Positions 10,166-52,873 of a DNA stretch of 61,700 bases are shown here, in pieces. This DNA is from a virus (Duplodnaviria; Caudoviricetes). Location: positions 1 to 61,700 of the IMG/VR virus record IMGVR_UViG_3300044681_000784, one strand, 5' to 3'. The translations under genes and the position numbers were made by a program. The notes beneath the pieces are model-generated. The model did not search any database, was not told the origin of the DNA, and saw only the letters and a list, made by a program, of their open reading frames with translations. Each line of letters begins with the position of its first letter. Within the stretch, counting starts at the first letter, position 1.

Positions 10166-10168
10166 ATT

Positions 10169-36927: not shown

Positions 36928-37097
36928 ATGACAGAAATGTCGATTCCTTCCTCCCCTACTCTCTCTCTATTTTAACTTCACACGCAACTTTTTTTTATTA
37001 TTTCATTTCGCTTTTAAAATCGACATTATCGACATCTTATTGATTATCAGTACTATTTTCGACATTAAATCGACATTAAAATGTCAGTAATTGACAT
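36928..37097. repeat. Origin-like element, copy 1 (ATGTCGA/TCGACAT iterons in inverted arrangement)
   Basis: Arms at 36928-36943 and 37020-37035 flank a CTACTCTCTCTCTA/T-rich spacer; extra TCGACAT at 37059 and 37070. Confidence 0.7.
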
Positions 37098-37141
37098 ATA
37101 TAGAAGTAAAAGAGAGAAAAGTAGGTAGGTATAGATAAAAG

Positions 37142-37160
37142 AAAAGGGGCCTAAGCCCCT
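37142..37160 (-). terminator. Terminator after 37186..37419
   Basis: Minus strand AGGGGC-TTAG-GCCCCTTTT. Confidence 0.65.
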
Positions 37161-37185
37161 AATCTCGATAACCAAAAAACATATA

Positions 37186-37419
37186 TCAACGTCGCTTAAT
37201 GGGCATCGTAGTCAACATCTGATACCCTAACTCCTTCTCCATCTCAGCACGACGAATACCCTCAGCAATCATGCTCACCTTCTTCTCACGCTTCATGTCA
37301 CTCTTCAACTGAGCAGCTCTCTGAATTCCATTCATACTGCATGGACGATTATTGATCAAACGACCACCGCGAACATCCAACCCATTGGATATCGACTTCA
37401 TAATAATAGGCTTTTTCAT
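37186..37419 (-). CDS. Hypothetical protein (77 aa); first gene of the leftward arm
   Basis: Start MKKPIIMK follows the TATCTTTG promoter at 37434-37441; the upstream part of the 235-aa track ORF is repeat-derived. Confidence 0.65.
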   Translation of the reverse strand: MKKPIIMKSISNGLDVRGGRLINNRPCSMNGIQRAAQLKSDMKREKKVSMIAEGIRRAEMEKELGYQMLTTMPIKRR

Positions 37420-37459
37420 AGTAAGTGTTTTGGCAAAGATACAAAAAGGTTCAGATACA

Positions 37460-37940
37460 CAGGGGCTGAGGGTTCCCCCCTGCTTTGGCGCGGCCGGGCC
37501 CGATGCGAAACCGCCCCTGCGCGAAGGTGGGGGGGGTGCTCTCGGCTTGGCGCAGCTCGGATTTTTGGCGTTTTTCTGCCATGCCCATGCTGTGCTGTTC
37601 CCATGCCGACAAATCTGCCATGCTCCCGATATCTGCCATGCATCCGCATCCGCATCCGCTCCATGCTCCATGCTCCCATCCCCATGCTCCCAATGATCCC
37701 CATGCTCCATGCTCCATGCTCCATGCATCCGATGTGCTGCGCATCCGCATCCATGCATCCGCTGTGCATCCGATTCGTCCCATATTTCGCAAACATTAGG
37801 GACAGGCCGAGCGCACCCAATATCTGCCCAATGACTGCCAAACCAAATGCCAACAATCGGATTTCCCCCGATTATCCCTACCAAATCTGCCATTGTGTCA
37901 GGTCAAAAGAAGGATGACTACCCCCCATCCATGCTCCCGA
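37460..37940. repeat. GC-rich box followed by a strand-biased CCATGC/GCATCC short-repeat field; probable genome terminus/packaging region
   Basis: G-run near 37526-37539; about 14 CCATGC and about 8 GCATCC, all on the + strand; lies at the divergence point of the two arms. Confidence 0.6.
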
Positions 37941-38140
37941 TGACTAAACTCACAAAAAAAATTGCGCTCTACAGCCCTTTGATAGCAAGGGATTCAGAAT
38001 TTTAACATTTTTTTTTGCTTCCCACATTTGGTAGTTTAAAAACTTCTAACGTACTTTGTCATGTTGCTAGTCAAAACATGAACAAAAACTTGTATATATA
38101 TAACCACACGCACGATAATAACCACACACACGATATCACT

Positions 38141-38175
38141 AATCACTAATCACTAATCACTAATCACTAATCACT
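38141..38175 (+). repeat. (AATCACT)5 tandem repeat in the leader of the first early gene
   Basis: Five perfect copies; the same heptamer recurs before several early start codons. Confidence 0.9.
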
Positions 38176-38183
38176 TATCAATC

Positions 38184-38681
38184 ATGAAAATCGCAAGAAG
38201 AATGTATCTAAACATCGGGAAAGCTAACAATCCCTTTGGACAATTTACGGATGAACAATTTGCAGACCTTCTATATAGTCTGCCCGACATTCACAGCAAA
38301 CCACACGTCGAAACCCATGTTGGAGAATGGGAAGGTCAGCGCGAAGAGACCTTTGTGGTAGACCTTATACACTATGATGATGACGCATCATCAAGAACAG
38401 AATCATATTACAAGTTTATCAGCACATTGCTATCCTTCACTACTCAGGATGCCATTGGAGTAATTTCCTTTGATGGCAGAGTAGATGAATCTGCAGGATA
38501 TGTAGAACGCGTTTGGCTGAATGGAGCGGAATTGAGGGAGTATTACTTCAGCAGTCCTCGTCTATTTTGGCATTACGGAGTAGAGCAGAAATATGAATTT
38601 AACAATGAATTCTTCATCATGCCATCTACCATAACTGATGTAGAGCGCGAAGCACATCAAAGAACGCTAAACTTGAAATAA
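38184..38681 (+). CDS. Putative SAM lyase (T3 SAMase-like) anti-restriction protein
   Basis: G-E-W-E-G-Q-R-E-E-T and Q-D-A-I motifs align by eye with the T3 SAMase G.Y...EE.T...QDCV motifs; first rightward gene. Confidence 0.5.
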   Translation: MKIARRMYLNIGKANNPFGQFTDEQFADLLYSLPDIHSKPHVETHVGEWEGQREETFVVDLIHYDDDASSRTESYYKFISTLLSFTTQDAIGVISFDGRVDESAGYVERVWLNGAELREYYFSSPRLFWHYGVEQKYEFNNEFFIMPSTITDVEREAHQRTLNLK

Positions 38682-38685
38682 AAAA

Positions 38686-38703
38686 TGTCTCTTCGAAGAG
38701 ACA
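38686..38703. promoter_or_regulatory. Perfect 18-bp palindrome TGTCTCTTCGAAGAGACA, copy 1 of 5
   Basis: Identical copies at 40119, 40168, 41897 and 43721. Confidence 0.9.
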
Positions 38704-38716
38704 AAATTCCAAACCC

Positions 38717-38920
38717 ATGATTAAAACTAAAAAAATATCATCAGGTCATTACCAAGGTACATACAAGAGCATTGGCTTCAAGGTCATCAAATCTATTCTG
38801 CCAAGCAATGAAGTAGTATGGTATTACCAAATCGGGAATGAGAAGGTGCATGATTTCCATGGGAGCAAATTTGAAGCAATTCAGTCTTTGATATCTTGGA
38901 TAGACGAGACAAAATCTTAA
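38717..38920 (+). CDS. Hypothetical early protein (67 aa)
   Basis: ORF bounded by the palindrome and heptamer repeats. Confidence 0.7.
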   Translation: MIKTKKISSGHYQGTYKSIGFKVIKSILPSNEVVWYYQIGNEKVHDFHGSKFEAIQSLISWIDETKS

Positions 38921-38961
38921 TCACTAATCATTAATCACTAATCACTTAAATCTTATCAATC

Positions 38962-39822
38962 ATGACAAACAAACTTCAAGCAAAATTGGGAATTAACAAG
39001 GTGAATTCTCTAAAAAGCAAAATCGATGCGAGCAATGAGAAATTGGCTCAAAACTACATTGCCATTGGCAAAATCATCGCAGAAGGCTCACTATGGGCAG
39101 ACAGCAAGGAAGGGAAGGAATTGCTGAGAGCGGAAGGTTTAACCAAAGCCGATGTGCTTACTGCCTATGGATACAGCCGTTCTTGGGCATACAAGCTAAT
39201 TGCTGTGTCTAATGTTGATGACGAGACATTGGCTGCGTACCTTGGCCAAGGCAATGTGGAATTCAATGTTGCTGACCTACTGAATTTCATTAACGCTACA
39301 GCGGAAGGTGAAGGTGAAGGTGAAGGTGAAGGTGAAGGTGAAGGTGAAGGTGAAGGTGAAAGCCAATCTAAGCCATCTACCTTGGCGAATTTAACCTTCC
39401 ATTTTGCTGCTGAATCGGTAAAGGTTAGGGTTACTGATGATGGCAAAGTTCACACCAAGAGTGACCTTGATAGCATCCGATTGGCATTGGCAGAACTTAC
39501 GCGAATTGTCGCGGAAGCAGATGCTCAGGCTCAGGCAGATGCCAAGGCTAAGGCTAAGGCAGATGCTCAGGCTCAGGCCAAGGCTCAGGCCAAGCCTACT
39601 CCAATCAAAGATTTCTCCAATGCCCTTGCATATGTTGGTGTAGATGCGCTGAAGGGAAAGGGAGGAATCCTGAATGTGGATAGCTTGCAGTATGTGGAAT
39701 TCGGGAATGAGACGTTCTTCAATGAATCGGGAGAATTGGGCAATGCCGCATCCGAATTCGTAGCGTCTCATGGATGGTCTTATCAGGTCGAAGAACCCTC
39801 TCACTTCTATGTAGCAAAGTAA
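38962..39822 (+). CDS. Early protein with possible DUF3102-like HTH, (EG)9 linker and Ala/Lys/Gln linker
   Basis: IAIGKII...YGYSRSWAYKLI pattern; (GAAGGT)9 at 39304-39357. Confidence 0.7.
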   Translation: MTNKLQAKLGINKVNSLKSKIDASNEKLAQNYIAIGKIIAEGSLWADSKEGKELLRAEGLTKADVLTAYGYSRSWAYKLIAVSNVDDETLAAYLGQGNVEFNVADLLNFINATAEGEGEGEGEGEGEGEGEGESQSKPSTLANLTFHFAAESVKVRVTDDGKVHTKSDLDSIRLALAELTRIVAEADAQAQADAKAKAKADAQAQAKAQAKPTPIKDFSNALAYVGVDALKGKGGILNVDSLQYVEFGNETFFNESGELGNAASEFVASHGWSYQVEEPSHFYVAK

Positions 39823-39836
39823 GTTAGGCAGTTATC

Positions 39837-39872
39837 GGATGGCGCAGTGGATTGGTCTGCTGCCCATCCTTT
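39837..39872 (+). terminator. Hairpin/terminator after 38962..39822
   Basis: GGATGG-CGCAG...CTGCTG-CCCATCC-TTT. Confidence 0.5.
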
Positions 39873-39895
39873 AACAATCCTTAACTATTCAGCTA

Positions 39896-39926
39896 TTGCA
39901 AATGTTCACCTTTATTATAACCTTTG
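39896..39926 (+). promoter_or_regulatory. Early promoter motif TTGCAwATGTyC...CTTTG (copy 1 of 3; others at 43665-43695 and 46091-46121)
   Basis: Three copies, each spanning exactly 31 bp. Confidence 0.65.
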
Positions 39927-39949
39927 TCAAACATTCAAACACACACACT

Positions 39950-40096
39950 ATGACACGTTACCAAATCGAACAGGAATCTATCCGCATCCGCAATGAGCGG
40001 AGGGCAAACCTGAGGAGCGCATTCATCCTCGGCATTGGGATTGTGGGATTGGCATTCAGCTATGCCATCATCATGATTCACTTCCTTGGCCAATAG
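39950..40096 (+). CDS. Small membrane protein (48 aa)
   Basis: Basic N-terminus plus one TM helix; downstream of the promoter. Confidence 0.6.
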   Translation: MTRYQIEQESIRIRNERRANLRSAFILGIGIVGLAFSYAIIMIHFLGQ

Positions 40097-40102
40097 TGGC
40101 CA

Positions 40103-40163
40103 TGCTGCCAATGGTTTTTGTCTCTTCGAAGAGACAAAATCGGTTCGATTCCGATGGCAGCAC
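40103..40163 (+). ncRNA. tRNA-like minihelix (acceptor stem plus T-arm) with the palindrome in place of the D and anticodon arms
   Basis: TGCTGCC(40103-40109)/GGCAGCA(40156-40162) 7-bp stem; ATCGG-TTCGATT-CCGAT T-arm; 24-bp palindrome at 40116-40139. Confidence 0.6.
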
Positions 40164-40215
40164 AAAATGTCTCTTCGAAGAGACAAAATCGCTAATCACT
40201 AATCAATTATCAGCA

Positions 40216-40647
40216 ATGCAAACAATCGCACAGCAGCTAAACGTAACTGAATTTCCTTTCGAAATCCATGATGCTAATGGAAATCTAATATACTATGAAG
40301 AGTCAAGTTCATATTGGTGGAAGCGTGAATACGATTCTAATGGCAATCTAATCTACCATGAAGAGTCAAGTTCATATTGGTGGAAGCGTGAATACGATTC
40401 TAATGGCAATCTAATCTACCATGAAAATTCCGAAGGCTTTTGGCGGAAATATGAATATGATGCTAATGGTAATCAAATCTACTTTAAAGATTCCGATGGC
40501 TATTGGAGCAAATGTGAATACGATTCCGATGGCAATCGAATCTACTTTGAAGATTCCTGTGGATATTGGAGTAAACGTGAATGCGATTCCGATGGAAGTC
40601 TAATCTACTATGAAGATTCCGATGGACTAATCATCGACAATCACTAA
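40216..40647 (+). CDS. 21-aa tandem repeat (YD-like) protein, paralog A
   Basis: 5.5 repeats of YDSNGNLIYxExSxxYWxKxE; true start MQTIAQ. Confidence 0.8.
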   Translation: MQTIAQQLNVTEFPFEIHDANGNLIYYEESSSYWWKREYDSNGNLIYHEESSSYWWKREYDSNGNLIYHENSEGFWRKYEYDANGNQIYFKDSDGYWSKCEYDSDGNRIYFEDSCGYWSKRECDSDGSLIYYEDSDGLIIDNH

Positions 40648-40654
40648 TCAAACC

Positions 40655-40684
40655 TATAGGGGCGCAGCATCCTTCAACACTGCA
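40655..40684 (+). repeat. 30-nt intergenic element, copy 1 (pseudoknot-like)
   Basis: TATAGGGGCGCAGCATCCTTCAACACTGCA, identical at 42345-42374. Confidence 0.85.
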
Positions 40685-40708
40685 CTAATCCTTTAATACC
40701 AAATAACA

Positions 40709-41035
40709 ATGGAAAAGTTAAATCAAATCATCGAATCAATGGCCTATGCCAAATTTCAAAATGATTCATGCCCCATCAAACGCAATGAATTCATAATGGA
40801 GAATGCTACATTGGGCGAATTCATTGACTACTTTCAAACCCGAAAGACATCCGATGGCACATCTTGGCATGACCGATATCATGACCTAATTTTGGGAAAA
40901 ATGGGCGGACTAAACGAGTCCTTTGTCGAAGATGTGCTATGGCCAAAACTTAAAGACAATTACATCGAAGAAGTGGTGAAAGGTCTTGAGGATAAACTTG
41001 ATGCTCAGTATAAAATAACCATTGAACAAATCTAA
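40709..41035 (+). CDS. Hypothetical early protein (108 aa)
   Basis: ORF in the early array. Confidence 0.7.
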   Translation: MEKLNQIIESMAYAKFQNDSCPIKRNEFIMENATLGEFIDYFQTRKTSDGTSWHDRYHDLILGKMGGLNESFVEDVLWPKLKDNYIEEVVKGLEDKLDAQYKITIEQI

Positions 41036-41041
41036 TCAGCT

Positions 41042-41293
41042 ATGTCACTATCAGCGTTAATAGAGAGAAACAAAAACGTCATTCTGCCTGAGCTATATGC
41101 TTGGGCAGAGACCTTCCGATTGTCCGATTTCCCTTCTCGCTTTGATGAAGAGGAAGACAATTCATTCGATGAAGTATGGTCATTGGCCGAGAGATTGGAC
41201 AATGGTCAATGTACGGAGGATGACTACGAAGAAATCATCTTTCACATCGAACAGATTAATTATAACGAAACCAAAATCAATTTAACCATTTAA
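41042..41293 (+). CDS. Small acidic early protein (83 aa)
   Basis: ORF in the early array; Asp/Glu-rich. Confidence 0.7.
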   Translation: MSLSALIERNKNVILPELYAWAETFRLSDFPSRFDEEEDNSFDEVWSLAERLDNGQCTEDDYEEIIFHIEQINYNETKINLTI

Positions 41294-41306
41294 TCAATTA
41301 TCAGCT

Positions 41307-41876
41307 ATGGCTACATCTAATTTTATCACCAACAATGCAAGCAGAATCTTTGTCATTCCGATTCAAGAAGAATTTGATTTCGATGATGCTGCTGCCAATG
41401 TGACTGCATCCCTTATCGGCATTGGCCATGAGTCTACGAGAGAATCATGGGACAGGTACGATGGCAGATACATGACGGAGAAGTTTATGAATGAATGCGT
41501 TTGGAATCCTGAGAATGGAAAGCCAATTGAATTTGATGTCCACATTAAAACTTGCATCAGGTCAGGTTACTATTCCGATGCCAATTTGGATTGGGAGATT
41601 GGCTATTCCTTGGAAGGATATGGCGAATTGGACATCCAATCCGTTCCTGATGAGGACTACATCAAGGAGTTATTGGACAGGAATTCGTATGCTGTATCAG
41701 GCGAGACCGATTCCGATATCTTTGACCTGTTGGCATCCATGATAAGGGAGAGGATTGTCCGAATGATGTCGAGTCTTGTCGAAGAGACAGAGAATGAATT
41801 CCGGCAGAACAGCAGCGCATCACTTCGATGTGTTGGTAGATTCTCCAATGGCGAAGCAATTTACGAACAAGAGTAA
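41307..41876 (+). CDS. Acidic early protein (189 aa)
   Basis: RSGYY..ANLD and FSNGEAIY motifs. Confidence 0.7.
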   Translation: MATSNFITNNASRIFVIPIQEEFDFDDAAANVTASLIGIGHESTRESWDRYDGRYMTEKFMNECVWNPENGKPIEFDVHIKTCIRSGYYSDANLDWEIGYSLEGYGELDIQSVPDEDYIKELLDRNSYAVSGETDSDIFDLLASMIRERIVRMMSSLVEETENEFRQNSSASLRCVGRFSNGEAIYEQE

Positions 41877-41951
41877 CCATTTAATCACCACAAAAATGTC
41901 TCTTCGAAGAGACAAAATCACTAATCATTAACCATTTAATCTTTATCACTT

Positions 41952-42338
41952 ATGTTGGTAGCAATCAATTTAGACATTGACCTTGAGTCAATATTCGTAA
42001 CGGCCTTAGAAGGCGGAAGTAACTATTGGATTGACTTCAGCTCATCCACATTCAAACATCTCAAGGATAAGTATTCGCAGATGTCATTCTCCGAGCGAGT
42101 TTACAATGAATTCATCAGCGGAGGAGCCATTGATGTCTTGGATGTTGAAGGTGATGAATCGGATGTCATCGGCCAAATATCCTTGGCCACTGCACCTTCG
42201 AGACTCGCCAAGATGTTTGAAGATGGCTTCATTTGGAGTCATGCAGACATTTCAGAGTTATTGGATGGAACTGCTGATGCCATTGCGTCAGACATTGTAC
42301 TTCAGTACCTTGCGTTAGGCGAAATAGTTTACGGATAA
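41952..42338 (+). CDS. Conserved phage hypothetical protein (128 aa)
   Basis: TALEGGSNYW...DA...D..LQ...LGEIVYG pattern. Confidence 0.7.
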   Translation: MLVAINLDIDLESIFVTALEGGSNYWIDFSSSTFKHLKDKYSQMSFSERVYNEFISGGAIDVLDVEGDESDVIGQISLATAPSRLAKMFEDGFIWSHADISELLDGTADAIASDIVLQYLALGEIVYG

Positions 42339-42344
42339 CAAAAA

Positions 42345-42374
42345 TATAGGGGCGCAGCATCCTTCAACACTGCA
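42345..42374 (+). repeat. 30-nt intergenic element, copy 2
   Basis: Identical to 40655-40684. Confidence 0.85.
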
Positions 42375-42398
42375 TTAACCATTTTATCTTTATCAATT

Positions 42399-42629
42399 AT
42401 GAACATTTTCATCATTAACACTACAGCCTTTGAAGAAGAGGATTTCTTTTTGCTGACTGACCTGAGTGAGCAAGACATTGTCGAAGTGATTACACCATTG
42501 GTGAATCAGGCGCGAGACGGATACGAGGAGTATGACAATGACCTGTTGGTCAATGCTCTCATTGAGCGTTATCCGAATGCCAAGATTGAGCATTACTGCA
42601 AAGATGCGATTGATTTAATAACCTTTTAA
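42399..42629 (+). CDS. Small acidic early protein (76 aa)
   Basis: INTTAFEEEDF.L.T.L ORF in the array. Confidence 0.7.
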   Translation: MNIFIINTTAFEEEDFFLLTDLSEQDIVEVITPLVNQARDGYEEYDNDLLVNALIERYPNAKIEHYCKDAIDLITF

Positions 42630-42638
42630 TCAGCAGCC

Positions 42639-42896
42639 ATGATACATAACGAGCATTTCGATAAGGCCGACAGAACCTACGAGGTTTGGCACGACAACAA
42701 TGGCAATGCCATTCACATCTTAATCAAGGATGGGGAGGCCATCATCTACCCTACAATCTATGACCTATTTCAGCATTTCCTATGCGGAATGGATGTTGAG
42801 AGAATGTACGTTGATGATGATGTGCTGAACTCAATCTGTGAATTAAACATCTACAATTACTACGAAATCAAAAACAAAATCAATTATCAATCATGA
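42639..42896 (+). CDS. Hypothetical early protein (85 aa)
   Basis: ORF with ATGA coupling to the next gene. Confidence 0.7.
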   Translation: MIHNEHFDKADRTYEVWHDNNGNAIHILIKDGEAIIYPTIYDLFQHFLCGMDVERMYVDDDVLNSICELNIYNYYEIKNKINYQS

Positions 42897-43633
42897 AAAC
42901 AATCGCGCAGAATTTAAACATCAAGGACTTTCCCTTTGAGATTAAGGATGCTAATGGCAATCTAATCTACCATGAAGATTCCACTGCCTTTTGGTGCAAA
43001 TGTGAATGCGATTCTAATGGCAATCTAATCTACTATGAAGATTCCGATGGCTTTTGGCGGAAACATGAATACGATTCTAATGGAAATCAAATCTACCATG
43101 AAAATTCCGGTGACTATTGGAACAAATGTGAATACGATTCCAATGGTAATCAAATCTACTTTGAAAATTCCTATGGCTATTGGAACAAACGTGAGTACGA
43201 TTCCAATGGCAATGAAACCTACTTTGAAGATTCCGGTGACTATTGGAACAAATGTGAATACGATTCCAATGGCAATCGAATCTACTTTGAAGATTCCTGT
43301 GGATATTGGAACAAACGTGAGTACGATTCCAATGGCAATGAAACCTACTTTGAAGATTCCGATGGTGAAATCATCGACAATCGGATTAATGAAGATGTCA
43401 AATTGGTAAATGAAGATGAGAGCGCGAGACAAGTCCTTGAGGGCATGGGGTACTATGTCCGGAATCTATGGTCAGTAAGTGACGTGAACGGATTCAATGG
43501 CAAGGTTTCAAAAGAGGAGGCTCTTAAGATTTTGGCTTCAGCACTAACCCATCCGTACACCATGGAAGTAGTCTTTGGTTTGATTAAAGATGGAGTCAGG
43601 GATTTTGGATATAAAATCGAAGACGAGTCTTAA
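42893..43633 (+). CDS. 21-aa tandem repeat (YD-like) protein, paralog B, with extra C-terminal domain
   Basis: 6.5 repeats plus an ~80-aa C-terminal domain (GYYVRNLWSVSDV). Confidence 0.8.
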   Translation: MKTIAQNLNIKDFPFEIKDANGNLIYHEDSTAFWCKCECDSNGNLIYYEDSDGFWRKHEYDSNGNQIYHENSGDYWNKCEYDSNGNQIYFENSYGYWNKREYDSNGNETYFEDSGDYWNKCEYDSNGNRIYFEDSCGYWNKREYDSNGNETYFEDSDGEIIDNRINEDVKLVNEDESARQVLEGMGYYVRNLWSVSDVNGFNGKVSKEEALKILASALTHPYTMEVVFGLIKDGVRDFGYKIEDES

Positions 43634-43753
43634 CAACATTTAAGAATTCATGGGGCATGGCCTATTGCATATGTCCCATGTTCTTCCAACCTTTGACAAT
43701 CAAATCACATAACACAAAAATGTCTCTTCGAAGAGACAAAATTCTAAATCAAA

Positions 43754-44239
43754 ATGGAAAAATTAATCATTAACTTTCAACAGAATTTTGCGTGGACTCG
43801 CTCCGCAAATAATGTTCTTTCCGTAACATCAAACAATGAAGACATCGTGCTTATTGTAGAGCATTTCGACATCTCAAGACTCGAATACGAAGACGCACTG
43901 CCACAGATGGCTGTTGTCGGTGATGGATTCTTCTTCGTGTACGATGGTAGTGATTTCTATCTTGGAGGCCAAGAGCCTATAGAAATATCGGAGACTGAGG
44001 TGTTTTTCGAGGCCACAGGTGACGTATCAAAGCCTATCTACTACCATTACAATGAGTCATGGCACTGCTCCCTACACAACGAAGAGACCGACAAGATTCT
44101 TCGCGAGGCTAACTCCATGCTTACCAATGGCAAGGTGAGTAAGATTGTTGGTGACGAAGCTGTTGACTCCATCTACGTTAGAAGGGGAGCGTATCGTGGT
44201 GCTAAGTTTATTCAAGAACAAATAATCGCAGCCAAATGA
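43754..44239 (+). CDS. Hypothetical early protein (161 aa)
   Basis: ORF after promoter copy 2 and palindrome copy 5. Confidence 0.7.
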   Translation: MEKLIINFQQNFAWTRSANNVLSVTSNNEDIVLIVEHFDISRLEYEDALPQMAVVGDGFFFVYDGSDFYLGGQEPIEISETEVFFEATGDVSKPIYYHYNESWHCSLHNEETDKILREANSMLTNGKVSKIVGDEAVDSIYVRRGAYRGAKFIQEQIIAAK

Positions 44240-44472
44240 CATCCGAGCGTATAGTTTTTCGGGGAGTTACCTACCCATTGTACATCGTATCTGTGGATGG
44301 AATTGACCATCATCTTTCTGTTGTTGCGTTAGCAGATGCAATCTTCGATGAGAACGAAGAGTTCGTTTCGGATGAGGCATACAGAATAGACATGGGCATA
44401 TCCTACTACCTGAGTGATGACGAGTTAAATCTTTCTACAATTCAAATTCAAAACTTAATTAGAAACCTATGA
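44236..44472 (+). CDS. Small acidic protein (78 aa)
   Basis: ATGA-coupled ORF; A..ID..I.YY motif. Confidence 0.7.
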   Translation: MTSERIVFRGVTYPLYIVSVDGIDHHLSVVALADAIFDENEEFVSDEAYRIDMGISYYLSDDELNLSTIQIQNLIRNL

Positions 44473-44984
44473 GACCGATTGATTATGTAAACAGAATGGC
44501 AGAGCCATACAGAAGTGAGTTCATTGCAAACACCTTGAAGTGGAGGGGAAGGGAGGAAGGAGCAAGGTGGCTGAACGAATACTCAGATAGATGGAATGGA
44601 TTCAACCAAGTAATCTATGGAGCATTCCCTTGGAGCGTAACAGAGCAAGGCAGACGCTATTGGGCGGCAGCCTACAGGCTTTATGGCGGAAAGAGTTTCA
44701 GTCCGCTAACTGCTGAAGACTTGGCCGAGTGGTCGAACATCACTGCTGTTGGAGATGAGACAGATGAGATTACCTTTTGGCAGGTTATTTTTAATGGAGA
44801 GATTCATTCCGAACACAAGAACTACACCGATGCTTTCACTGTCTTTGACAGGCTTAAGTACGGAGAGGGAGAGGAAGTCATCGGCCTTAGAGAGTTCTTG
44901 TCTCGGTCTGTCGAGTTATTTCAAAGCAGATGGGCACTTAACAGAGGTCAGCACCACATCCAAACAACCACAATACGGAGATGA
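44469..44984 (+). CDS. Hypothetical protein (171 aa)
   Basis: ATGA-coupled ORF; AF.W..T.QG..YW motif. Confidence 0.7.
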   Translation: MRPIDYVNRMAEPYRSEFIANTLKWRGREEGARWLNEYSDRWNGFNQVIYGAFPWSVTEQGRRYWAAAYRLYGGKSFSPLTAEDLAEWSNITAVGDETDEITFWQVIFNGEIHSEHKNYTDAFTVFDRLKYGEGEEVIGLREFLSRSVELFQSRWALNRGQHHIQTTTIRR

Positions 44985-45238
44985 TTTGGAAGCACATCAT
45001 TGAGCCATTGACAGGTCAAATAGACAGATGGTTCTTCAGCCTATCGATGGCTGACAAGCGAGACATATTGGGTGAGGGGATTGGTATGTATGGGATGCTT
45101 AGGCTTTGGGGTTCTATGGACTTGGAGCAGAAGATTCGGACATACGATATGTACCATGAGACTCACCCATCCTCATCAGTAGGTATATTTGTTGGGGAAT
45201 CAAACGATTCATTAACCATTAAATTCAAAACACCATGA
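44981..45238 (+). CDS. Hypothetical protein (85 aa)
   Basis: ATGA-coupled ORF. Confidence 0.6.
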   Translation: MIWKHIIEPLTGQIDRWFFSLSMADKRDILGEGIGMYGMLRLWGSMDLEQKIRTYDMYHETHPSSSVGIFVGESNDSLTIKFKTP

Positions 45239-45735
45239 ATAACTTAATGTATATTTTTGGAGGAGTCTTAGGCTTCTTCATTGGGTTCTTTGTGATACCA
45301 AAAGACAACGGCATTTCAAAGTACATTCAAGACGAGCCTACTATTGACTCGTGTGTGTCAGTAGTCCATGAATCTCCGGAAACAAAACAATTCCCTGACT
45401 CGCTGATGACATTGGTTGATGCCATGATTCAGGTAGAGAGCAGTGGAAATCATTGTGCCTACAACAAGAGGGAGGATGCTGTTGGATGCCTACAGATAAG
45501 ACCTATCATGGTCAGGGAGGTGAACAGGCTGTTGGGTAGGGAGGAGTACACGATGAATGACAGGTGGGACTACACCAAGTCTTTGGAGATGTTCCTTGTT
45601 GTGGTGGAACACCATCATCCTGATGGATCATTTGAGGGCATAGCGAGGTGTTGGAATGGTGGCCCGAATGGTATGCGGATGGAGTCTACCAAGACGTATT
45701 GGGAAAAAGTTTTGTCAAGGATAGGTTCTTCTTAA
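45235..45735 (+). CDS. Membrane-anchored lysozyme-fold protein (i-type/destabilase or SLT-like)
   Basis: N-terminal TM; AMIQVESSG, A.GCLQI, AR.WNGGP.G...YW motifs. Confidence 0.75.
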   Translation: MNNLMYIFGGVLGFFIGFFVIPKDNGISKYIQDEPTIDSCVSVVHESPETKQFPDSLMTLVDAMIQVESSGNHCAYNKREDAVGCLQIRPIMVREVNRLLGREEYTMNDRWDYTKSLEMFLVVVEHHHPDGSFEGIARCWNGGPNGMRMESTKTYWEKVLSRIGSS

Positions 45736-45759
45736 TTTTTTCTTAGTTTTGCAGACAAT

Positions 45760-45867
45760 AGTCAGGTGGCGTAAGTGTGAATGAATAGCACTGAAAAGGT
45801 AACGCATCAGTGGGATAGCATCCCTTAATATTTCTGATAGATGCAAGTTCGAATCTTGCCCTGACTA
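45760..45867 (+). ncRNA. tRNA-like RNA with expanded D and anticodon loops
   Basis: AGTCAGG/CCTGACT acceptor, GCGT/ACGC D stem, ATCAG/CTGAT stem, GCAAG-TTCGAAT-CTTGC T-arm; promoter TAGTTTTG at 45744-45751. Confidence 0.7.
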
Positions 45868-45930
45868 CAACTTGTCATTAAAGGTGCAAAAACCAAAATG
45901 TTGTGTGCCTTTATGACCACTTAATAATAT

Positions 45931-46004
45931 TGCGGAGTAGTAGCAGTTGGTAGCTCGTCAGTTTCATAAGCTGAAGGTCGTGGGTTCGAGTCCCACCTCC
46001 GCAA
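45931..46004 (+). tRNA. tRNA-Met (CAT), initiator-derived variant
   Basis: Cloverleaf TGCGGAG/CTCCGCA, TCAGT-TTCATAA-GCTGA, GTGGG-TTCGAGT-CCCAC; no encoded CCA. Confidence 0.85.
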
Positions 46005-46234
46005 CATTTAATTCAATTTAGTATGAGCGATTTTATCAGAAGGAAGATCTTAATCTTTAAATATCTTTAACAAATAAAGTGGAACTGCGCTTGCATATGT
46101 CCATTATTATTATAATCTTTGTGTATCAATATAATAAACAATGAAGTTTTTTATTTGGTAGTTACAAACAGATTGCATATCTTTGTTGGCGAAGCGAATG
46201 CGCCCTATGTCATTCGCACACAGACACTAATCAA

Positions 46235-46537
46235 ATGAAATCAAAAGTGTTCAAACAAATCTCATCCAAGGTCATGGAAGCATTTGACTTGGATGTAGAG
46301 ACAATGTCCTCGGACAGAAGAAGGAGCAGCGTTGAGGCTCGTCAAATGCTTTACTACATCGCAAGGCGGAGGAACATCAGGCTCGTCGACATTCAAGACC
46401 TGATGAACGATGTGTTCGGGGTGAGGCCATCCCACACCTCAGTCATCCATGGCATCAAGACCACAGAGAAGAAGGTCAGGGAGGACAATGACTTCCACGT
46501 TGTAGCAAGTAGAATCAATCAATCAGTAACCATTTAA
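46235..46537 (+). CDS. DnaA domain-IV-like HTH protein
   Basis: R.R..V.ARQM.YY......I......HTSVIHG.K; TATCTTTG promoter at 46178-46185. Confidence 0.7.
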   Translation: MKSKVFKQISSKVMEAFDLDVETMSSDRRRSSVEARQMLYYIARRRNIRLVDIQDLMNDVFGVRPSHTSVIHGIKTTEKKVREDNDFHVVASRINQSVTI

Positions 46538-46547
46538 ATCCATTCAT

Positions 46548-47177
46548 ATGGCAAATCCAAAGTCGGTCTTCGAGACCTTAAACAGCGTTCCTTTCAGGGA
46601 CAAAATCGAGAACAAAGGTGGCTTAGACTACCTCTCATGGGCATGGGCATGGTCTATGCTAAAGGCAAACTACCCGAATGCCAATCGTATTGTGTACGAA
46701 GATCCGGCCACAGGCTTGAACTTCTTCACAGATGGCAAGACAGCCTACGTCAAGGTTGGTATTTCAATCGATGGCCTTGAGCATATCGACTACCTACCAA
46801 TCATGGACTTCCGCAACAACCCCATCCTAATTGACAAGCTAACAGCGACAGACGTGAACAAAACAATTCAGCGTTCTACAGCCAAGGCAATTGCCATGCA
46901 TGGATTGGGCATCCAACTATGGAGTGGCGAGGACATCCCCGGCGAAGCACCGGCTACATCTCCGGCCATGGGCACACCGAAGCAGTCTGCATCGGTTCAG
47001 CCAACACCACAAACTCAACAAGCTGAGTCGCTAAAGACCGGCACAGAGAATTGGGACAGAGTTGTAGCTTACGTTACTGCGAACAAAGAGATTGGCTTTG
47101 ACAAAATCATTGCCCAACTTAAGCGCAAGTACACCATCGCTCCATCGGTTGCCAACAAAATCAAGGAGTTGCTATGA
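46548..47177 (+). CDS. Single-strand annealing protein (Sak3/DUF1071, Rad52-like)
   Basis: YLSWAWAW, LPIMD.RN and NK..QR...KAIA.HGLG..L..GED.P motifs. Confidence 0.85.
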   Translation: MANPKSVFETLNSVPFRDKIENKGGLDYLSWAWAWSMLKANYPNANRIVYEDPATGLNFFTDGKTAYVKVGISIDGLEHIDYLPIMDFRNNPILIDKLTATDVNKTIQRSTAKAIAMHGLGIQLWSGEDIPGEAPATSPAMGTPKQSASVQPTPQTQQAESLKTGTENWDRVVAYVTANKEIGFDKIIAQLKRKYTIAPSVANKIKELL

Positions 47178-47920
47178 AGAACAAAAGTCAGATAGTCGAA
47201 AGGCTGAGAGATGACTCAGATTACTATGGGGAGTTTGGCAGGAAATTCCTGTCGAACTCCGACATAGGAGTCCTACTCTCAAACCCGAAGGACTTCCGTA
47301 ATGGGACTCGGCCCGACTCAAAGGCTCTGTTAGAAGGTAGGTACTTCCATCAGCTATTGCTTGAGCCTGAGAAGGCTTTTGATGTCATGGTGGTTGACGC
47401 ATCGTCAAGGAACACCAACATCTACAAGGAGTACATCGCATCAACAGGGTTAGACATAGTACTTCTTCAGAAGGAGAAGGAGCACATCGAGAGGCTCGTC
47501 TCAGTAATGAAGTCGAACATCTACTACTACGATGAGATCTACAAGCCATCGAACAAGTACGAAGTTCCACAGGTCAAGGAGATCATGGGAGTTCTTTGGA
47601 AGGGGAAGGCGGACATAGAGTCAGACAGCATACTTATTGATGCCAAGACCACGTCCGACATCCACAAGTTCAAGTACTCTGCGAAAGCCTACAACTATGA
47701 CTCTCAGGCTTGGCTTTACGAACAGCTATTCGGGAAGCCATTGGTGTTCTTTGTCATCGACAAGGAGACCGAACAGCTTGGAGTCTTCCGGCCTACGGAT
47801 GAGTTCCTTGAGTCAGGCAAAGACAAGGTCAGAAGAGCCGTTGAAGTTTACAACAGGTACTTCGGCCCGACAGCCTACGATAGTGTTGAAAACCACTACA
47901 TCGACTTAGAGTTAAATTAA
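47174..47920 (+). CDS. PD-(D/E)XK exonuclease (RecE/DUF3799-like)
   Basis: LS.S.I, G..FH..LLEP, KGKAD, ID.KTT and Y..QA..Y motifs; coupled to the SSAP gene. Confidence 0.8.
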   Translation: MKNKSQIVERLRDDSDYYGEFGRKFLSNSDIGVLLSNPKDFRNGTRPDSKALLEGRYFHQLLLEPEKAFDVMVVDASSRNTNIYKEYIASTGLDIVLLQKEKEHIERLVSVMKSNIYYYDEIYKPSNKYEVPQVKEIMGVLWKGKADIESDSILIDAKTTSDIHKFKYSAKAYNYDSQAWLYEQLFGKPLVFFVIDKETEQLGVFRPTDEFLESGKDKVRRAVEVYNRYFGPTAYDSVENHYIDLELN

Positions 47921-48006
47921 ATCAATCAAATCCCGAGTGCAAACTCCTCGGACACAAGGGAAGAGAAATCAATTATTAATCCGAGGAAAACAAATACCAT
48001 TTAGTT

Positions 48007-48300
48007 ATGAGCGAACAAGAAAAGATTTTCGCAGACGGCTTTTCATTTAAGCGTCAAGAGTCAGCACCCGACTTCGTTGTTGGAAGCCTATCCATGAAGG
48101 TCGACGAGGCCATTGAGTTCATGAAGACCAACTCTAAAAAGGGATGGCTGAACCTACAGATCAAGCAAGCTCGTAGTGGAAACTACTACATTGAACTTGA
48201 CACATGGGAGCCAAAGCCACAAGGCGGTCAGCGTCAGGCTCCGGCTCCGGCGGCTGTTCCCGATCAGGCTCAGGCTCAAGAAGACGAGCTGCCGTTCTAA
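48007..48300 (+). CDS. Putative single-stranded DNA-binding protein
   Basis: Small beta domain, flexible linker and acidic DELPF C-terminus; lies in the recombination module. Confidence 0.65.
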   Translation: MSEQEKIFADGFSFKRQESAPDFVVGSLSMKVDEAIEFMKTNSKKGWLNLQIKQARSGNYYIELDTWEPKPQGGQRQAPAPAAVPDQAQAQEDELPF

Positions 48301-48321
48301 GGCCAAGGCCAAACAGAATCA

Positions 48322-48353
48322 GGATGGGGGAGCACTTGTTCCCCCATTCTTTT
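48322..48353 (+). terminator. Intrinsic terminator after SSB
   Basis: GGATGGGGGAGC-ACTT-GTTCCCCCATTC-TTTT. Confidence 0.8.
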
Positions 48354-48356
48354 CTG

Positions 48357-48465
48357 ATGTCGGAAATGTCGAAATCAAACCAACACTACTCTCTCTCTAA
48401 TTTTATTGAACCCTATCTAAGTTTTTTTAAATATAGTTTGGTTTTAAAATTGACATTATCGACAT
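48357..48465. repeat. Origin-like element, copy 2, directly upstream of the primase-helicase gene
   Basis: Arms at 48357-48372 and 48450-48465, with the same internal CTACTCTCTCTCTA and TTTTAAAAT spacing as copy 1. Confidence 0.7.
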
Positions 48466-48510
48466 ATAATTAATAATCAATAACTTAAGTGTCATAAAAA
48501 AAGCATCAAG

Positions 48511-50913
48511 ATGACATCAAGCGTCACAATATTTCAGAACATCAAGGAGACATCTACCCCTTTCTTTCGTCCTGTAGAGTCTATACTCACAAGGATAAGG
48601 GATGGAGCGTCTAAGGACTTGGTAAAAAAGATCCGGAACGAAAAGCGTAAACCGGAAAGGCAAGAGATGAAGAAGCTTTTGCCGGCCATATGTTTCTCAG
48701 GAACATTCAACAAGCGCAATGACTCCTCCATCATAGACCACAGCGGAATCATCTGCTTGGACTTCGATGGATACGAGAAGCAGAAGGACTTGCTCTCCGA
48801 TAAGGAGAGTCTTTCAAAAGACAAGTACGTCTACTCGGTCTTCATATCTCCATCAGGCAACGGCCTGAAGGTGTTGGTAAAGATTCCGGCAGATCCTGAG
48901 AACCACATCAACTACTTCAACTCTCTTCAGCACCACTTCAACTCTCCGTACTTTGACAAGTCAACGAAGAACATCAGTCGGGTTTGCTACGAGTCATACG
49001 ATCCTTTGATCTACGTCAACGAGAACTCGTTCCTTTGGGACAAGATAGAGGAGGCAGAGTACAACGAGGTGATCAAGTACAGAGATGCCCCGACCATCCC
49101 AATCACAGATGAGAATAAGATTGTGGACATACTCGTGAAGTGGTGGACAAAGAAGTACCCGATGATCGAGGGACAGCGAAATCAAAATGCCTTTGTGTTG
49201 GCCATGGCATTCAATGACTTTGGTGTCAACAAAAGCTTGGCCGGATACGTCCTCAATCAATACGCAACCCAAGACTTCAGCGTATCAGAGATAGGCAGAA
49301 CCATTGACTCAGCGTATCAGAACTCAAGAAACTTCGGCACCAAGTACTACGAAGATGAGGACAGGGTAAACCAAATCAAAGCCAAGATCAGGAGAGGAGT
49401 ATCGAAGAAAGAAGTTCGGTCTCAGCTTTTGGAGTCTGACTTGGATGGAGACGTAATCGATGCCGTTCTAAACAGGATCGAGGATGAGAACACCAAGCTT
49501 ACCTTTTGGGCCAAGAACGATAAGGGAGCAATCAAGATCGTTCACATCCTGTTCAAGCAGTTCTTAGAGGACAATGGGTTCTACAAGTTCTGCCCCGAAG
49601 GAAGTAAGAACTACGTCTTTGTGAAGGTGACAAACAACCTAATCGACCATGCGTCCGAGAAAGAGATCAAGGACTTTGTCCTGAACCATCTCCTTGAGTT
49701 GGATGACGTGAACGTCTACAACTACTTCGCAGATCAAACCCGATTCTTTAAGGACGAGTTCCTGTCAATGCTTAACACCATCGACATCTACTTCATTGAA
49801 GACACAAAGGACACAGCGTACCTGTACTACCGGAACTGCGCGGTCAAGATCACAAAGGAAACGGTTCAGCCTATAGACTACTTGGACTTGGGCGGATACG
49901 TTTGGAAGGATCAGGTCATTGACAGGAACTTCATCCAATGCAAGACCACACCATCCTTTGCGTTCAAGAGATTCATCGAGAACATCTGCAACAAAGAGGT
50001 AGAAAGGATCGAGTCCATGCAGAGTACAATTGGATTCATGATGCATGGGTACAAGAACTACTCGTACTGCCCTGCCATCATCCTTAACGATGAGGTGATA
50101 TCCGACAACCCCGAAGGCGGAACAGGGAAGGGGATCGTGATGAACGCACTATCTCAGATGAAGAAGGTGGTTACCATAGATGGAAAGTCATTCACATTCG
50201 AGCGATCATTTGCTTATCAGTTGGTGTCTGCCGACACGCAGATCCTTGTGTTCGATGACGTGAAGAAGCACTTCGACTTCGAGAGGCTGTTCAGCGTTGT
50301 TACAGAGGGACTGACGCTCGAGAAGAAGAACAAGGACGCCATTAAGATTCCATTCAGCCGATCACCAAAGATTGCGATCACTACGAACTACGCTATCAAA
50401 GGAGCCGGCAACTCCTTCGCAAGAAGGAAGTGGGAACTTGAACTTCACCAATACTACACCAAGGAGTACACCCCTTTCGATGAGTTCGGGAAGCTGTTCT
50501 TCGGTGATTGGAACGATGACGATTGGTGTGAGTTCGACAACTACATGGTGTCTTGCCTGAAGAACTACCTGAGAACAGGTCTTGTTAAGAGCAAGTTTGT
50601 CAACCTCAAGGTTCGTCAGCTATCTGCTGAGACAAGCCATGACTTCATCGAGTGGTGCGGATTGGTTGATAACGCTGAGCCGGCCAAGCTATTGGAGACA
50701 GGGATCAGGGTTTACAAGCAAGAGATTTACTACGAGTTTATCTCCGAGTACCCCGACTATGGGCCGAAGAGTAGGATGACAATCTCAAGAACGAAGTTCT
50801 ACAAGTGGTTGGTATCTTATGGCCTATTCAAACATGGGATAGTTCCCGAGGAGGGAAGAGATCCGATGGGACGATGGATTATGTTTAGAACAAAAGATGA
50901 ATCAAATGACTGA
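48511..50913 (+). CDS. Primase-helicase (BT4734-like N-terminal primase domain, PriCT-like domain, SF3-type helicase)
   Basis: ICLDFD, F.SPSGNGLK, SR.CYES.D; EGQRN; Walker A GGTGKG, Walker B LVFDD, ITTN. Confidence 0.85.
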   Translation: MTSSVTIFQNIKETSTPFFRPVESILTRIRDGASKDLVKKIRNEKRKPERQEMKKLLPAICFSGTFNKRNDSSIIDHSGIICLDFDGYEKQKDLLSDKESLSKDKYVYSVFISPSGNGLKVLVKIPADPENHINYFNSLQHHFNSPYFDKSTKNISRVCYESYDPLIYVNENSFLWDKIEEAEYNEVIKYRDAPTIPITDENKIVDILVKWWTKKYPMIEGQRNQNAFVLAMAFNDFGVNKSLAGYVLNQYATQDFSVSEIGRTIDSAYQNSRNFGTKYYEDEDRVNQIKAKIRRGVSKKEVRSQLLESDLDGDVIDAVLNRIEDENTKLTFWAKNDKGAIKIVHILFKQFLEDNGFYKFCPEGSKNYVFVKVTNNLIDHASEKEIKDFVLNHLLELDDVNVYNYFADQTRFFKDEFLSMLNTIDIYFIEDTKDTAYLYYRNCAVKITKETVQPIDYLDLGGYVWKDQVIDRNFIQCKTTPSFAFKRFIENICNKEVERIESMQSTIGFMMHGYKNYSYCPAIILNDEVISDNPEGGTGKGIVMNALSQMKKVVTIDGKSFTFERSFAYQLVSADTQILVFDDVKKHFDFERLFSVVTEGLTLEKKNKDAIKIPFSRSPKIAITTNYAIKGAGNSFARRKWELELHQYYTKEYTPFDEFGKLFFGDWNDDDWCEFDNYMVSCLKNYLRTGLVKSKFVNLKVRQLSAETSHDFIEWCGLVDNAEPAKLLETGIRVYKQEIYYEFISEYPDYGPKSRMTISRTKFYKWLVSYGLFKHGIVPEEGRDPMGRWIMFRTKDESND

Positions 50914-52363: not shown

Positions 52364-52374
52364 CAAAAAGAATT

Positions 52375-52596
52375 ATGAACAACAACAAACAACAAACAGC
52401 ACTAGAATGGTTGGAGGATACACTATACCCTTATTTGAATAAAGAAGATAAGGAATATACAGATGTTCTATTTAACAAAGCCAAAGAAATGGAGAAGGAA
52501 CAGATAATGAAAGCCGTTTACGATAGCATGGGGACAAATTTAGATCCCAATATTGGAAGGGCGGAGATATACTACAACGAAACCTTTAACAAATAA
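52375..52596 (+). CDS. Small AT-rich hypothetical protein (QTALEWL...AKEMEKEQI family)
   Basis: ORF in an AT-rich insert. Confidence 0.7.
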   Translation: MNNNKQQTALEWLEDTLYPYLNKEDKEYTDVLFNKAKEMEKEQIMKAVYDSMGTNLDPNIGRAEIYYNETFNK

Positions 52597-52599
52597 CTT

Positions 52600-52848
52600 A
52601 TGAACGGAATACCTAAACAAGAAACACTTGAAGAAGCATCTTTGAAATATAATCCATTAAAAAAATTTGATGGAGAATTTATAAGAGCAGCATTTATCAA
52701 TGGTGCTAAATGGCAAGCAGAAAGAATGTATAGTGAGGAAGAAGTTAAAGAAATATTAATGAAAACAGATAGATTTCTGAGAGCAGATTTAGATTTATGG
52801 TTTGAACAATTTAAAAAAAAAATCATCATTCGCCAAGAGAAACAATAA
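52600..52848 (+). CDS. Small AT-rich hypothetical protein (QETLEEA...GAKWQAERMYSEEEV family)
   Basis: ORF in an AT-rich insert. Confidence 0.7.
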   Translation: MNGIPKQETLEEASLKYNPLKKFDGEFIRAAFINGAKWQAERMYSEEEVKEILMKTDRFLRADLDLWFEQFKKKIIIRQEKQ

Positions 52849-52873
52849 TCGCAGAACCTTTAACAAATAAACC

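Follow-up and report, generated by a model that had tools for sequence, protein, structure and literature searches.

A perfectly conserved 18-bp palindrome in the early region of a podophage genome as a candidate RNA punctuation hairpin

The 18-bp palindrome TGTCTCTTCGAAGAGACA is repeated five times in the early region of a tailed-phage genome, IMG/VR record IMGVR_UViG_3300044681_000784. The window that we analyzed is the entire record of 61,700 bases. On balance, we lean toward the view, based on comparison with related phages, that the palindrome functions at the level of RNA, as a punctuation and stability hairpin of polycistronic early transcripts. It would be the DNA image of a transcribed stem-loop that forms the core of an intercistronic punctuation unit in this phage clade.

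The five copies of the palindrome were exact and were confined to the + strand of the rightward early block (Table 1). Shuffled sequence contained 0.03 matches on average, none of 100 shuffles reached six, and the record read backwards gave none. Beyond the five sites, there was no copy in the 61,700-base record. These results bear out an earlier description made from the sequence alone (the original prediction), which had reported five mismatch-free copies and none outside the early region. The flanks were also as had been described: AAAT directly follows all five copies, AAAA directly precedes those at 38686, 40168, 41897 and 43721, and these four are followed by an ATG 13-37 nt downstream. 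The copy at 40119 is preceded by GTTTT. The claim that all copies are intergenic holds for four of them, and fails for the copy at 40119, which lies within a tRNA-like element (40103-40162). One of the other four copies is behind this element and three are behind the stop codon of an open reading frame (ORF); each is then followed by a G-poor leader and an ATG. Here and below, genes are simple naive ORF calls, except those in GenBank records. There is also a degenerate match with three mismatches inside an ORF, which may have arisen by chance or by decay of a true copy.

The palindrome is not an assembly artefact, because contigs from four other studies cover the copies and four related phage records carry the same stem. 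The contigs are DNA contigs that match the copy region at 85-99% identity. A search for sequencing runs that contain the window listed no RNA run.

The predicted RNA fold of a window copy is a 7-bp stem (UGUCUCU/AGAGACA) closed by a UCGA loop, with a free energy of -8.2 kcal/mol. The z-scores of the folds were -4.07 for copy 1, -2.20 for copy 4, and -3.30 for copy 5. In the computed folds, the hairpin was the sole structure amid G-poor leader sequence; the leader at 38918-38964, for example, had a minimum free energy of 0 kcal/mol.

The window phage belongs to a clade of ~60-kb podophages whose cultured relatives infect Flavobacteriia. Its terminase, portal and structural proteins match tailed-phage PHROG families, a 1,590-aa protein has a weak match to the crAss 'muzzle' family, and the phage encodes GroEL, a primase-helicase, an SNF2 helicase, a Sak-type annealing protein, and PDDEXK nucleases. 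The nearest record by terminase is that of a metagenomic podovirus (MW202828.1, 60,850 bp, 76% identity), followed by the Flavobacterium 'elemo' phages (44%) and phages of Cellulophaga, Tenacibaculum and Maribacter (31-37%). The + strand carries the genes at 38184-54616, and the minus strand those for structure and lysis. Megablast of positions 37000-46000 against the phage collection gave no match, and searches of PHROGs and Pfam with ten early-region proteins were uninformative.

The same or a covarying hairpin was present in relatives. We compared the window to 80 IMG/VR loci anchored on GroEL, plus phage records chosen by terminase (G and L numbers below are our designations for these). 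MW202828 contained 14 exact copies of GTGTCGTTAACGACAC in the syntenic early/replication block and no copy of TGTCTCTTCGAAGAGACA. Ten of the 80 loci had at least three identical copies of GTGTCTTYRAAGACAC or GTCGTATACGAC; the script also flagged an eleventh locus, which was rejected because it had only an AT repeat. The stem of the window type, GTCTCTT NN AAGAGAC, was found seven, nine, six and six times in four related records, and not at all in a fifth or in the control, with CG, CA, TG or TA as the two central letters. There were three types of hairpin across the phages. The two arms change jointly between phages and are invariant within each genome, with no constraint on the two central letters. 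Each arm of the window stem is 2 bp longer than in the commonest type in relatives, and the inner 10 bp are common to both. That relatives might lack any palindrome at these positions, which the original prediction had named as grounds for doubt, is clearly not the case.

The hairpin appears to be phage-borne. An exact search for TGTCTCTTCGAAGAGACA in one genome each of 185,579 prokaryote species gave no match, and within that collection the sequence is thus not a host REP-like repeat. For the commoner relative motif, the matches listed in prokaryote genomes were single scattered sites, except for one 56-kb contig. This contig, WTJX01000555.1 (56,458 bp; L120/L167), is binned in a Cytophagales metagenome-assembled genome, has five hairpin copies of the relative type, and is similar in size to these phages. 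It probably represents a phage of the clade, which would give a hint to the host range. Among 87 phage records related by TerL, no cultured phage had the motif and the sole carrier was the metagenomic MW202828. Flavobacterium phage elemoE (NC_055854) had no repeated perfect hairpin, and Cellulophaga phage phi38:1 had neither hairpin nor hammerhead.

In many relatives, the hairpin is enclosed by a further helix and is followed at once by a predicted type III hammerhead ribozyme. The order of the module is stem III, GUH, a stem I hairpin (loop UGAGUG), CUGAUGA, stem II, and GAAAC, and then an A-rich leader and an ATG. The predicted cut site is 5-12 nt past the hairpin. We aligned 14 hairpin-hammerhead modules from seven records and found that 96.1% of the cells were paired and that 16 of the 26 pairs changed on both sides. 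None of 500 shuffles reached any of the four measures used, and controls slid out of register were 42-52% paired. The helix that encloses the core had 19 G·U or U·G cells versus five unpaired cells. These wobble pairs are A·C mismatches on the opposite strand. Because they exist as pairs on the gene strand only, the structure would have been selected in the sense RNA.

The Rfam model Hammerhead_3 matched full-length at four sites in L023 (37.1, 29.8, 29.6 and 23.8 bits; E-values from 3.6e-5 to 0.2), all below the gathering threshold of 48.5, and nothing in the loci of six relatives reached that threshold. A strict descriptor found 29 sites in 16 of the 80 loci, none in reversed controls, and none in the window. 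The family hairpin was within 45 nt upstream of 14 of these 29 sites, and in L008 and G003 a hammerhead follows the exact 18-mer of the window. We inspected 11 of the other hammerheads, and seven had a different stable hairpin ending just before stem III, indicating that a hairpin followed by a hammerhead is a general layout and that the invariant core is one version of it. In elemoE (L011, NC_055854.1), one sequence at ~13851-13901 on the minus strand, between early genes, fits the strict descriptor.

The hairpin was also associated with two other devices that may generate RNA ends. At 6734 in G002 and at 11050 in G003, the core followed by a U-tract closes late operons on the gene strand. 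Elsewhere the core is part of tRNA-like elements, described below. We made a rough tally of 90 copies in 16 sequence sets: a hammerhead followed 14, a U-tract followed three, five were in tRNA-like elements, and 41 had no attached element. The remaining 27 were scored as within coding sequence, a class that is overcounted and unreliable due to the naive ORF calls and that wrongly takes in the window copy at 40168. The copies without an attached element typically follow a stop codon by 4-5 nt, with the next ATG 16-41 nt downstream. Since the core is found within selected sense-strand RNA structures in three types of RNA-end device, we read the window copies as a version of the same element without a ribozyme. 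An RNA-processing or stabilizing hairpin was one of the alternatives offered by the original prediction, and it gains support from the covarying G·U-containing helix at hammerheads, the U-tract terminators, and the tRNA-like elements of the relatives.

The tRNA-like element of the window has an acceptor stem and a T arm. It has no D arm and has a 4-nt loop, features that set it apart from a tRNA gene. ARAGORN reported a doubtful tRNA-Lys at 40079-40163, with an acceptor stem that is poorly paired as judged by eye, and the Rfam tRNA model did not match the element, even at E-values up to 10. Homologous elements that contain the hairpin are present in G002 (three, in the early region) and in L020 (one, with its own hairpin type), and one of those in G002 precedes the homologue of window gene 40216. 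Because ARAGORN found no tRNA in the loci of 11 relatives, these elements were located by their T-loop motif. The arrangement is reminiscent of tRNA punctuation as in the mitochondrial model, in which RNase P and RNase Z release RNAs: the copy at 40119 and four copies in relatives are in minihelices made of an acceptor stem and a T arm, located between genes. In contrast to true tRNAs, the phage elements have neither a D arm nor a true anticodon loop, and cleavage of them by RNase P or RNase Z, expected under the substrate rules of these enzymes, is a prediction.

There are other tRNA-like sequences in these phages. A second element in the window, at 45760-45867 on the + strand, matched the Rfam tRNA model with 39.9 bits. 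Its D loop has a 27-nt insertion, and a 23-nt insertion with a small hairpin replaces the anticodon loop, leaving no usable anticodon. A promoter-like TAGTTTTG immediately precedes the element, and a normal tRNA-Met (45931-46005) follows it. Canonical T arms (GGTTCGATTCC plus a paired stem), in many cases with an ATGGT motif on the 5' side, were seen in L037, L043, L045, L049, L053, L056, L060, L067, L072, L080 and L081, which are not the 11 loci given to ARAGORN. They may represent a family of tRNA-like punctuation elements.

We propose the following model. The hairpin would act in the sense RNA of long rightward early transcripts, as the sole stable structure between a stop codon and the next leader. 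It would cap the end of a cistron and, once the RNA has been cleaved or terminated, block 3'-5' exonucleases. Where a processing site or a promoter immediately precedes it (as may hold for the copies at 40168 and 43721), it would instead be a 5'-proximal stabilizer of the downstream cistron, and it would also prevent the leader from pairing with sequence upstream. In relatives, the end of the RNA beside the hairpin would be made by a type III hammerhead, by termination at a U-tract, or by RNase P or RNase Z cutting a tRNA-like element. In the window, the copy at 40119 is in the tRNA-like setting and four copies stand alone. We infer, from sequence as for all functional statements here, that the window copies are transcribed and that they stabilize or insulate RNA.

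Several observations weigh against this model. There is no hammerhead near any window copy, as judged by Rfam and by loose and strict descriptors, and the link of the window copies to RNA processing comes through homology with relatives. The copy at 43721 is behind a promoter-like repeat and would thus mark a 5' end rather than a 3' end, and four of the five window copies look like intrinsic terminators on the minus strand. Some copies in relatives are inside genuine coding sequences, where a role at the end of a cistron makes no sense. In the primase gene of MW202828, for example, the motif takes the place of six codons in a variable stretch, and the alignment with the window protein is free of gaps. 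A plain structural stabilizer needs no fixed sequence, yet the stem is 100% conserved in each genome while the center of the loop and the flanking helix vary, a pattern of invariant arms that is more typical of a double-stranded DNA site for a dimer or of a site for a sequence-specific factor. An RNA punctuation hairpin leaves the fixed stem sequence and the copies kept inside genes unexplained, and two alternatives, a DNA site for a dimer and a sequence-specific RNA-binding factor, therefore stay alive.

One of these alternatives is possible, though we would not call it probable: the invariant stem may be a recognition tag for a sequence-specific phage or host factor that acts on RNA, or on both RNA and DNA, and that co-evolves with the tag. 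Together with the hammerheads, tRNA-like elements and terminators, such tags might make up a modular 'processing code', with the tRNA-like elements serving to display or titrate the factor.

The other alternative, which we regard as unlikely, is that the palindrome is an operator or a parS/KorB-like site on double-stranded DNA. It would be bound by a dimeric phage protein (for example, the proteins at 46235 and 53519 that consist of DnaA domain IV only, or the small protein at 33133) that shuts off or organizes the early/replication region. The perfect palindrome with invariant arms and two free central base pairs (CG, CA, TG, TA) would suit a dimer that makes no contact with the center; both arms change together between phages; the copies extend across the early/replication block, including into conserved genes by substitution without insertion or deletion; and the two small proteins with a Bac_DnaA_C helix-turn-helix (46235 and 53519) are conserved in the family. 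However, a DNA site has no need for a covarying flanking helix with G·U pairs on the sense strand only, or for a fixed place at stem III of hammerheads, in terminator stems, and in the arm of tRNA-like elements. There was no ParB or KorB family among the 67 ORF products scanned with Pfam, and no repressor family was detected. The longer window stem (2 bp per arm) also speaks against a common dimer site, although we no longer regard it as a decisive argument, given the inner 10 bp common to both types. The dimeric-protein site that had been proposed thus accounts for the invariant arms and the free center, and does not account for the sense-strand-only G·U helix or the fixed place in RNA devices.

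The arrangement of promoters suggests that the early region is transcribed as one long unit. Bacteroidota hosts are not known to rely on initiation led by a Shine-Dalgarno sequence, and they have unusual promoters. Motifs of the TATCTTTG type (TAnnTTTG), which we take to be the Bacteroidota -7 box, precede many minus-strand operons and also 33133 and 46235. We found none, under this assumed consensus, at intergenic + strand positions from 38184 to 45700, which suggests one long early transcript. There was also none on the + strand inside or beside a ~39-nt repeat unit that includes the hairpin (Table 1). A sigma-70-type scan gave one match that overlaps a hairpin copy, copy 5 only, and 16 matches in the region compared to 23.9 in shuffled sequence.

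The lack of host-type promoter motifs at intergenic positions of the early block is also what might be seen if the palindromes were promoters like those of phage N4, where a palindrome extrudes as a DNA hairpin and an injected virion RNA polymerase starts early transcripts just downstream. What is described for N4 is similar in that short conserved hairpins precede early genes and the podophage has a giant virion protein; the hairpins here lie 13-37 nt before start codons and, like promoters of phage polymerases, are invariant. The candidate for such a protein is a giant minus-strand ORF of virion type that runs off both ends of the record (2-4603 and 54621-61700; 1,534 + 2,359 aa, ~3,890 aa in total), indicating that the genome is circularly permuted. 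Its counterpart in MW202828 is a single gene for 3,859 aa (741-12320). In the window, the register of the two parts is shifted by one base where they meet.

Despite these similarities, we consider an N4-like promoter quite improbable. The giant ORF has a DUF3293 match and a weak SprT-like match, and no RNA-polymerase signature in Pfam, PHROGs, NCBIfam, sequence matches to PDB, or a search for the DFDxD motif; its structure was not predicted, so a very divergent enzyme is possible. Its neighbors in a language-model comparison were 'large polyvalent protein' domains (LPD14/22/39) and MuF_C, with scores below 0.9, and are leads only. The 19 wobble cells pair on the sense strand only and are mismatches on the template strand, which argues against a template-strand hairpin. 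The flanking helix spans both sides of the core, implying that transcripts run through it, and the same core is found in U-tract terminators and inside genes. The loop of the phage hairpin is 4 nt, compared to 3 nt in N4. In addition, early transcripts made by the virion polymerase of crAss-like phage phi14:2 are described as having no common motif, to the extent covered in the part of the preprint relied on here (bioRxiv 10.1101/2020.03.07.982082), and this counts against an N4-like promoter.

The palindromes could instead be intrinsic terminators on the minus strand that stop antisense transcripts in the early block, a function that would be specific to the window genome. A terminator scan flagged four of the five copies on the minus strand (TTTTT, TTTTT, TTTT and TTTTTT after the hairpin), there were 17 terminator-like sites in the region compared to 7.1 expected, and promoter-like motifs on the minus strand, in a 49-nt repeat (40656 and 42346), point at copies 3 and 4. 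This explanation seems improbable to us. Relatives have no T-run at that place (on the minus strand of MW202828 the hairpin is followed by CGATTA, and L022 is similar), there are no minus-strand genes or known antisense RNAs in the block, and the A-run may merely belong to the context of stop codon and leader. On the gene strand of the window, an intrinsic terminator is not apparent: all five copies are followed by an A-run instead of a U-tract.

The repeat unit around the hairpin is associated with rearrangements between strains. Three copies share a ~39-nt unit consisting of CACAAAAA, the hairpin, and AAAATCNCTAATCA, with 87-100% identity. In the contigs from the four other studies, we found a join from 38707, just past copy 1, to 41027, with 13 other letters between (one run), and a join from 41938 to 42386 that removes the ORF after copy 4, with 10 letters common to both sides (two runs). 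The joint of this deletion ends in the 49-nt repeat in both metagenome runs. In all four runs the hairpin unit was joined to the leader of gene 38962 (38944/38954). Many contigs start or stop at hairpin units, although part of this signal is technical, as short contigs normally break at repeats. Compared to G002, in which GroEL is 80% identical, the early gene set is the same and the order is different, with hairpins preceding different genes and standing at several junctions. The cassette recombination site listed in the original prediction gains support from these strain-level insertions, deletions and rearrangements with breakpoints at hairpin and leader units.

These results resemble those for promoter-early stem-loops (PeSLs) of T4-type phages, composite repeats that, in the part of the account drawn on here, mark points of gene insertion, loss and swap (PMC4122927). 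In both cases, near-exact stem-loop repeats are between small variable early genes at which relatives differ by gain, loss or swap of genes. The window has the stem-loop repeat at variable early gene borders and the breakpoints at repeats, and lacks the early promoter. The phage unit differs further in having no U-tract on the window gene strand, in the coupling of the relatives' hairpin to hammerheads and tRNA-like elements (for which that part of the PeSL account has no counterpart), and in the phage family and host phylum.

It is rather unlikely that a border of mobile gene cassettes is the primary role of the hairpin, with short homology serving to swap accessory early genes and any effect on RNA being secondary. 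The strain contigs that break and rejoin at the units, the shuffled gene order relative to G002, the same 49-nt repeat closing each of the ORFs after copies 3 and 4, the Sak-type annealing protein and PDDEXK nucleases encoded by the phage, and the PeSL precedent all fit with such a role. But the core of 16-18 bp is very short for homologous exchange, and the mapped microhomology is in the leader rather than in the hairpin. Recombination by itself would not explain a fixed core amid a diverging helix and diverging hammerhead stems, and there was no integrase or transposase among the window proteins. The data do support an additional role of the exact ~39-nt unit as a border for recombination, whether as a side effect or as a second function. 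In our model of an RNA punctuation hairpin, the unit of hairpin and leader would thus double as a substrate for recombination that shuffles early-gene cassettes.

Very improbable is an RNA decoy, in which the hairpin mimics a repeat of the host, either a solitary CRISPR-repeat unit (Racr) or a REP element. Phage-encoded solitary repeat hairpins can inhibit CRISPR-Cas, as described in the part of the report cited here (PMC10651486), and a stable small RNA that presents the hairpin could come from the tRNA-like elements. However, the conserved part is 16-18 nt, shorter than CRISPR repeats, the 18-mer had no exact match in the 185,579 species genomes, and among the matches listed for the relative motif there were no array-like multiple matches. 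We rejected mimicry of a CRISPR repeat or REP on the basis of these genome searches. A signal during entry of single-stranded DNA and a decoy for restriction enzymes, two further suggestions in the original prediction, found no support, and neither did a miniature mobile unit, as the in-gene copy of the relative arose by substitution without a change in length and the 18-mer is absent from those genomes. For the same reason of unchanged length in the MW202828 primase, we rejected a mobile hairpin that inserts into genes. The palindrome resembles the GTGTC recognition site of T7 primase; we set this likeness aside as a five-letter coincidence, the phage primase being of the BT4734-like / PriCT / DUF5906 type.

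Table 1. Positions of the hairpin copies and associated elements in the window
Feature	Position	Strand	Setting
Hairpin copy 1	38686..38703	+	4 nt past stop of ORF 38184-38681, 13 nt before ATG 38717; without ribozyme or tRNA-like element
Hairpin copy 2	40119..40136	+	within tRNA-like element 40103-40162; GTTTT 5'
Hairpin copy 3	40168..40185	+	5 nt past tRNA-like element, 30 nt before ATG 40216
Hairpin copy 4	41897..41914	+	20 nt past stop of ORF 41307-41876, 37 nt before ATG 41952
Hairpin copy 5	43721..43738	+	15 nt before ATG 43754; downstream of terminator-like long hairpin and promoter-like repeat 43665-43703
Degenerate copy, 3 mismatches	41772..41789	+	inside ORF 41307-41876
D-armless tRNA-like element, 60 nt	40103..40162	+	7-bp acceptor-like stem, canonical T arm (GGTTCGATTCC), hairpin copy 2 as anticodon arm
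~39-nt unit, reference copy	41889..41927	+	CACAAAAA-hairpin-AAAATCNCTAATCA
~39-nt unit, further copies	40160-40198 (87%), 43713-43751 (90%), 38678-38716 (79%)	+	repeat family
G-poor TAATCAC-repeat leader	38140..38183	+	upstream of first early gene
49-nt repeat	40649..40697 and 42339-42387 (88%)	+	right after stops of ORFs following hairpin copies 3 and 4

Several other repeats are in the neighborhood of the hairpins. The TAATCAC-type leader motif is also found 3' of copies 3 and 4 and 5' of the ATG at 38962. The 49-nt repeat may form the 3' border of a cassette; its minus strand has the form of a Bacteroidota-type promoter. A separate 39-nt repeat (TTGCAnATGT...AACCTTTG) occurs three times on the + strand, at 39896-39934, 43665-43703 and 46091-46129; its TTG / TTTG spacing resembles that of a Bacteroidota promoter, and one copy is just 5' of hairpin copy 5 and one is 5' of the tRNA-like element. 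At 43649-43685 (+), right after the stop of ORF 42893-43633, there is a strong local hairpin followed by TTCTTCC, which may be the real terminator of this ORF. The fold of 43630-43725 had a free energy of -21.9 kcal/mol and a z-score of -3.51. Tandem repeats of 63 nt (21 aa) at 40201-40626 and 42815-43366 (+), similar to each other, build ORFs 40216-40647 and 42893-43633, and metagenome contigs recombine between these two ORFs. ORF 38962-39822 contains GAAGGT and GCTCAGGC-type repeats.

The early block begins beside a non-coding stretch of ~730 bp (37450-38180) at the point at which leftward and rightward genes diverge. It is rich in short repeats (CCATGCTCC, CATCCG and, immediately 5' of the first early ATG, five TAATCAC units) and may be an origin or control region. 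An ORF call at 37186-37893 is probably real only up to 37419.

The hairpin has features in common with two other known types of element between genes. REP-type palindromes are also repeated between cistrons and can protect upstream mRNA from 3' exonucleases. Unlike the phage motif, which is phage-borne, shorter, exactly conserved and absent from the 185,579 species genomes, REPs are families of the host chromosome that are spread by RAYT transposases. Hammerheads clustered in phages and prophages are the second type. The prophage ribozymes flank genes and, in the part of the source used here, were proposed to cut long transcripts into gene-length mRNAs (PMC3088659, Perreault et al.). The relatives of the window phage likewise have type III hammerheads between single early genes. 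They differ in that the clade adds a genome-specific invariant hairpin directly 5' of the cleavage site and uses it without a ribozyme as well, and in that the window has no hammerhead.

The organization of early gene expression in phages of Bacteroidota is poorly known. The clade described here appears to mark the borders of early genes with one genome-specific hairpin and three RNA-end devices, and the accessory genes that are turned over at the units are probably anti-defense genes. These phages offer a natural system for the role of a ribozyme-adjacent hairpin in the stability of mRNA, for the reason that its sequence is fixed, and for the way in which accessory genes are turned over by exact repeats. 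Should there be a specific binding factor, the pairs of hairpin and factor from different phages would be orthogonal RNA tags.

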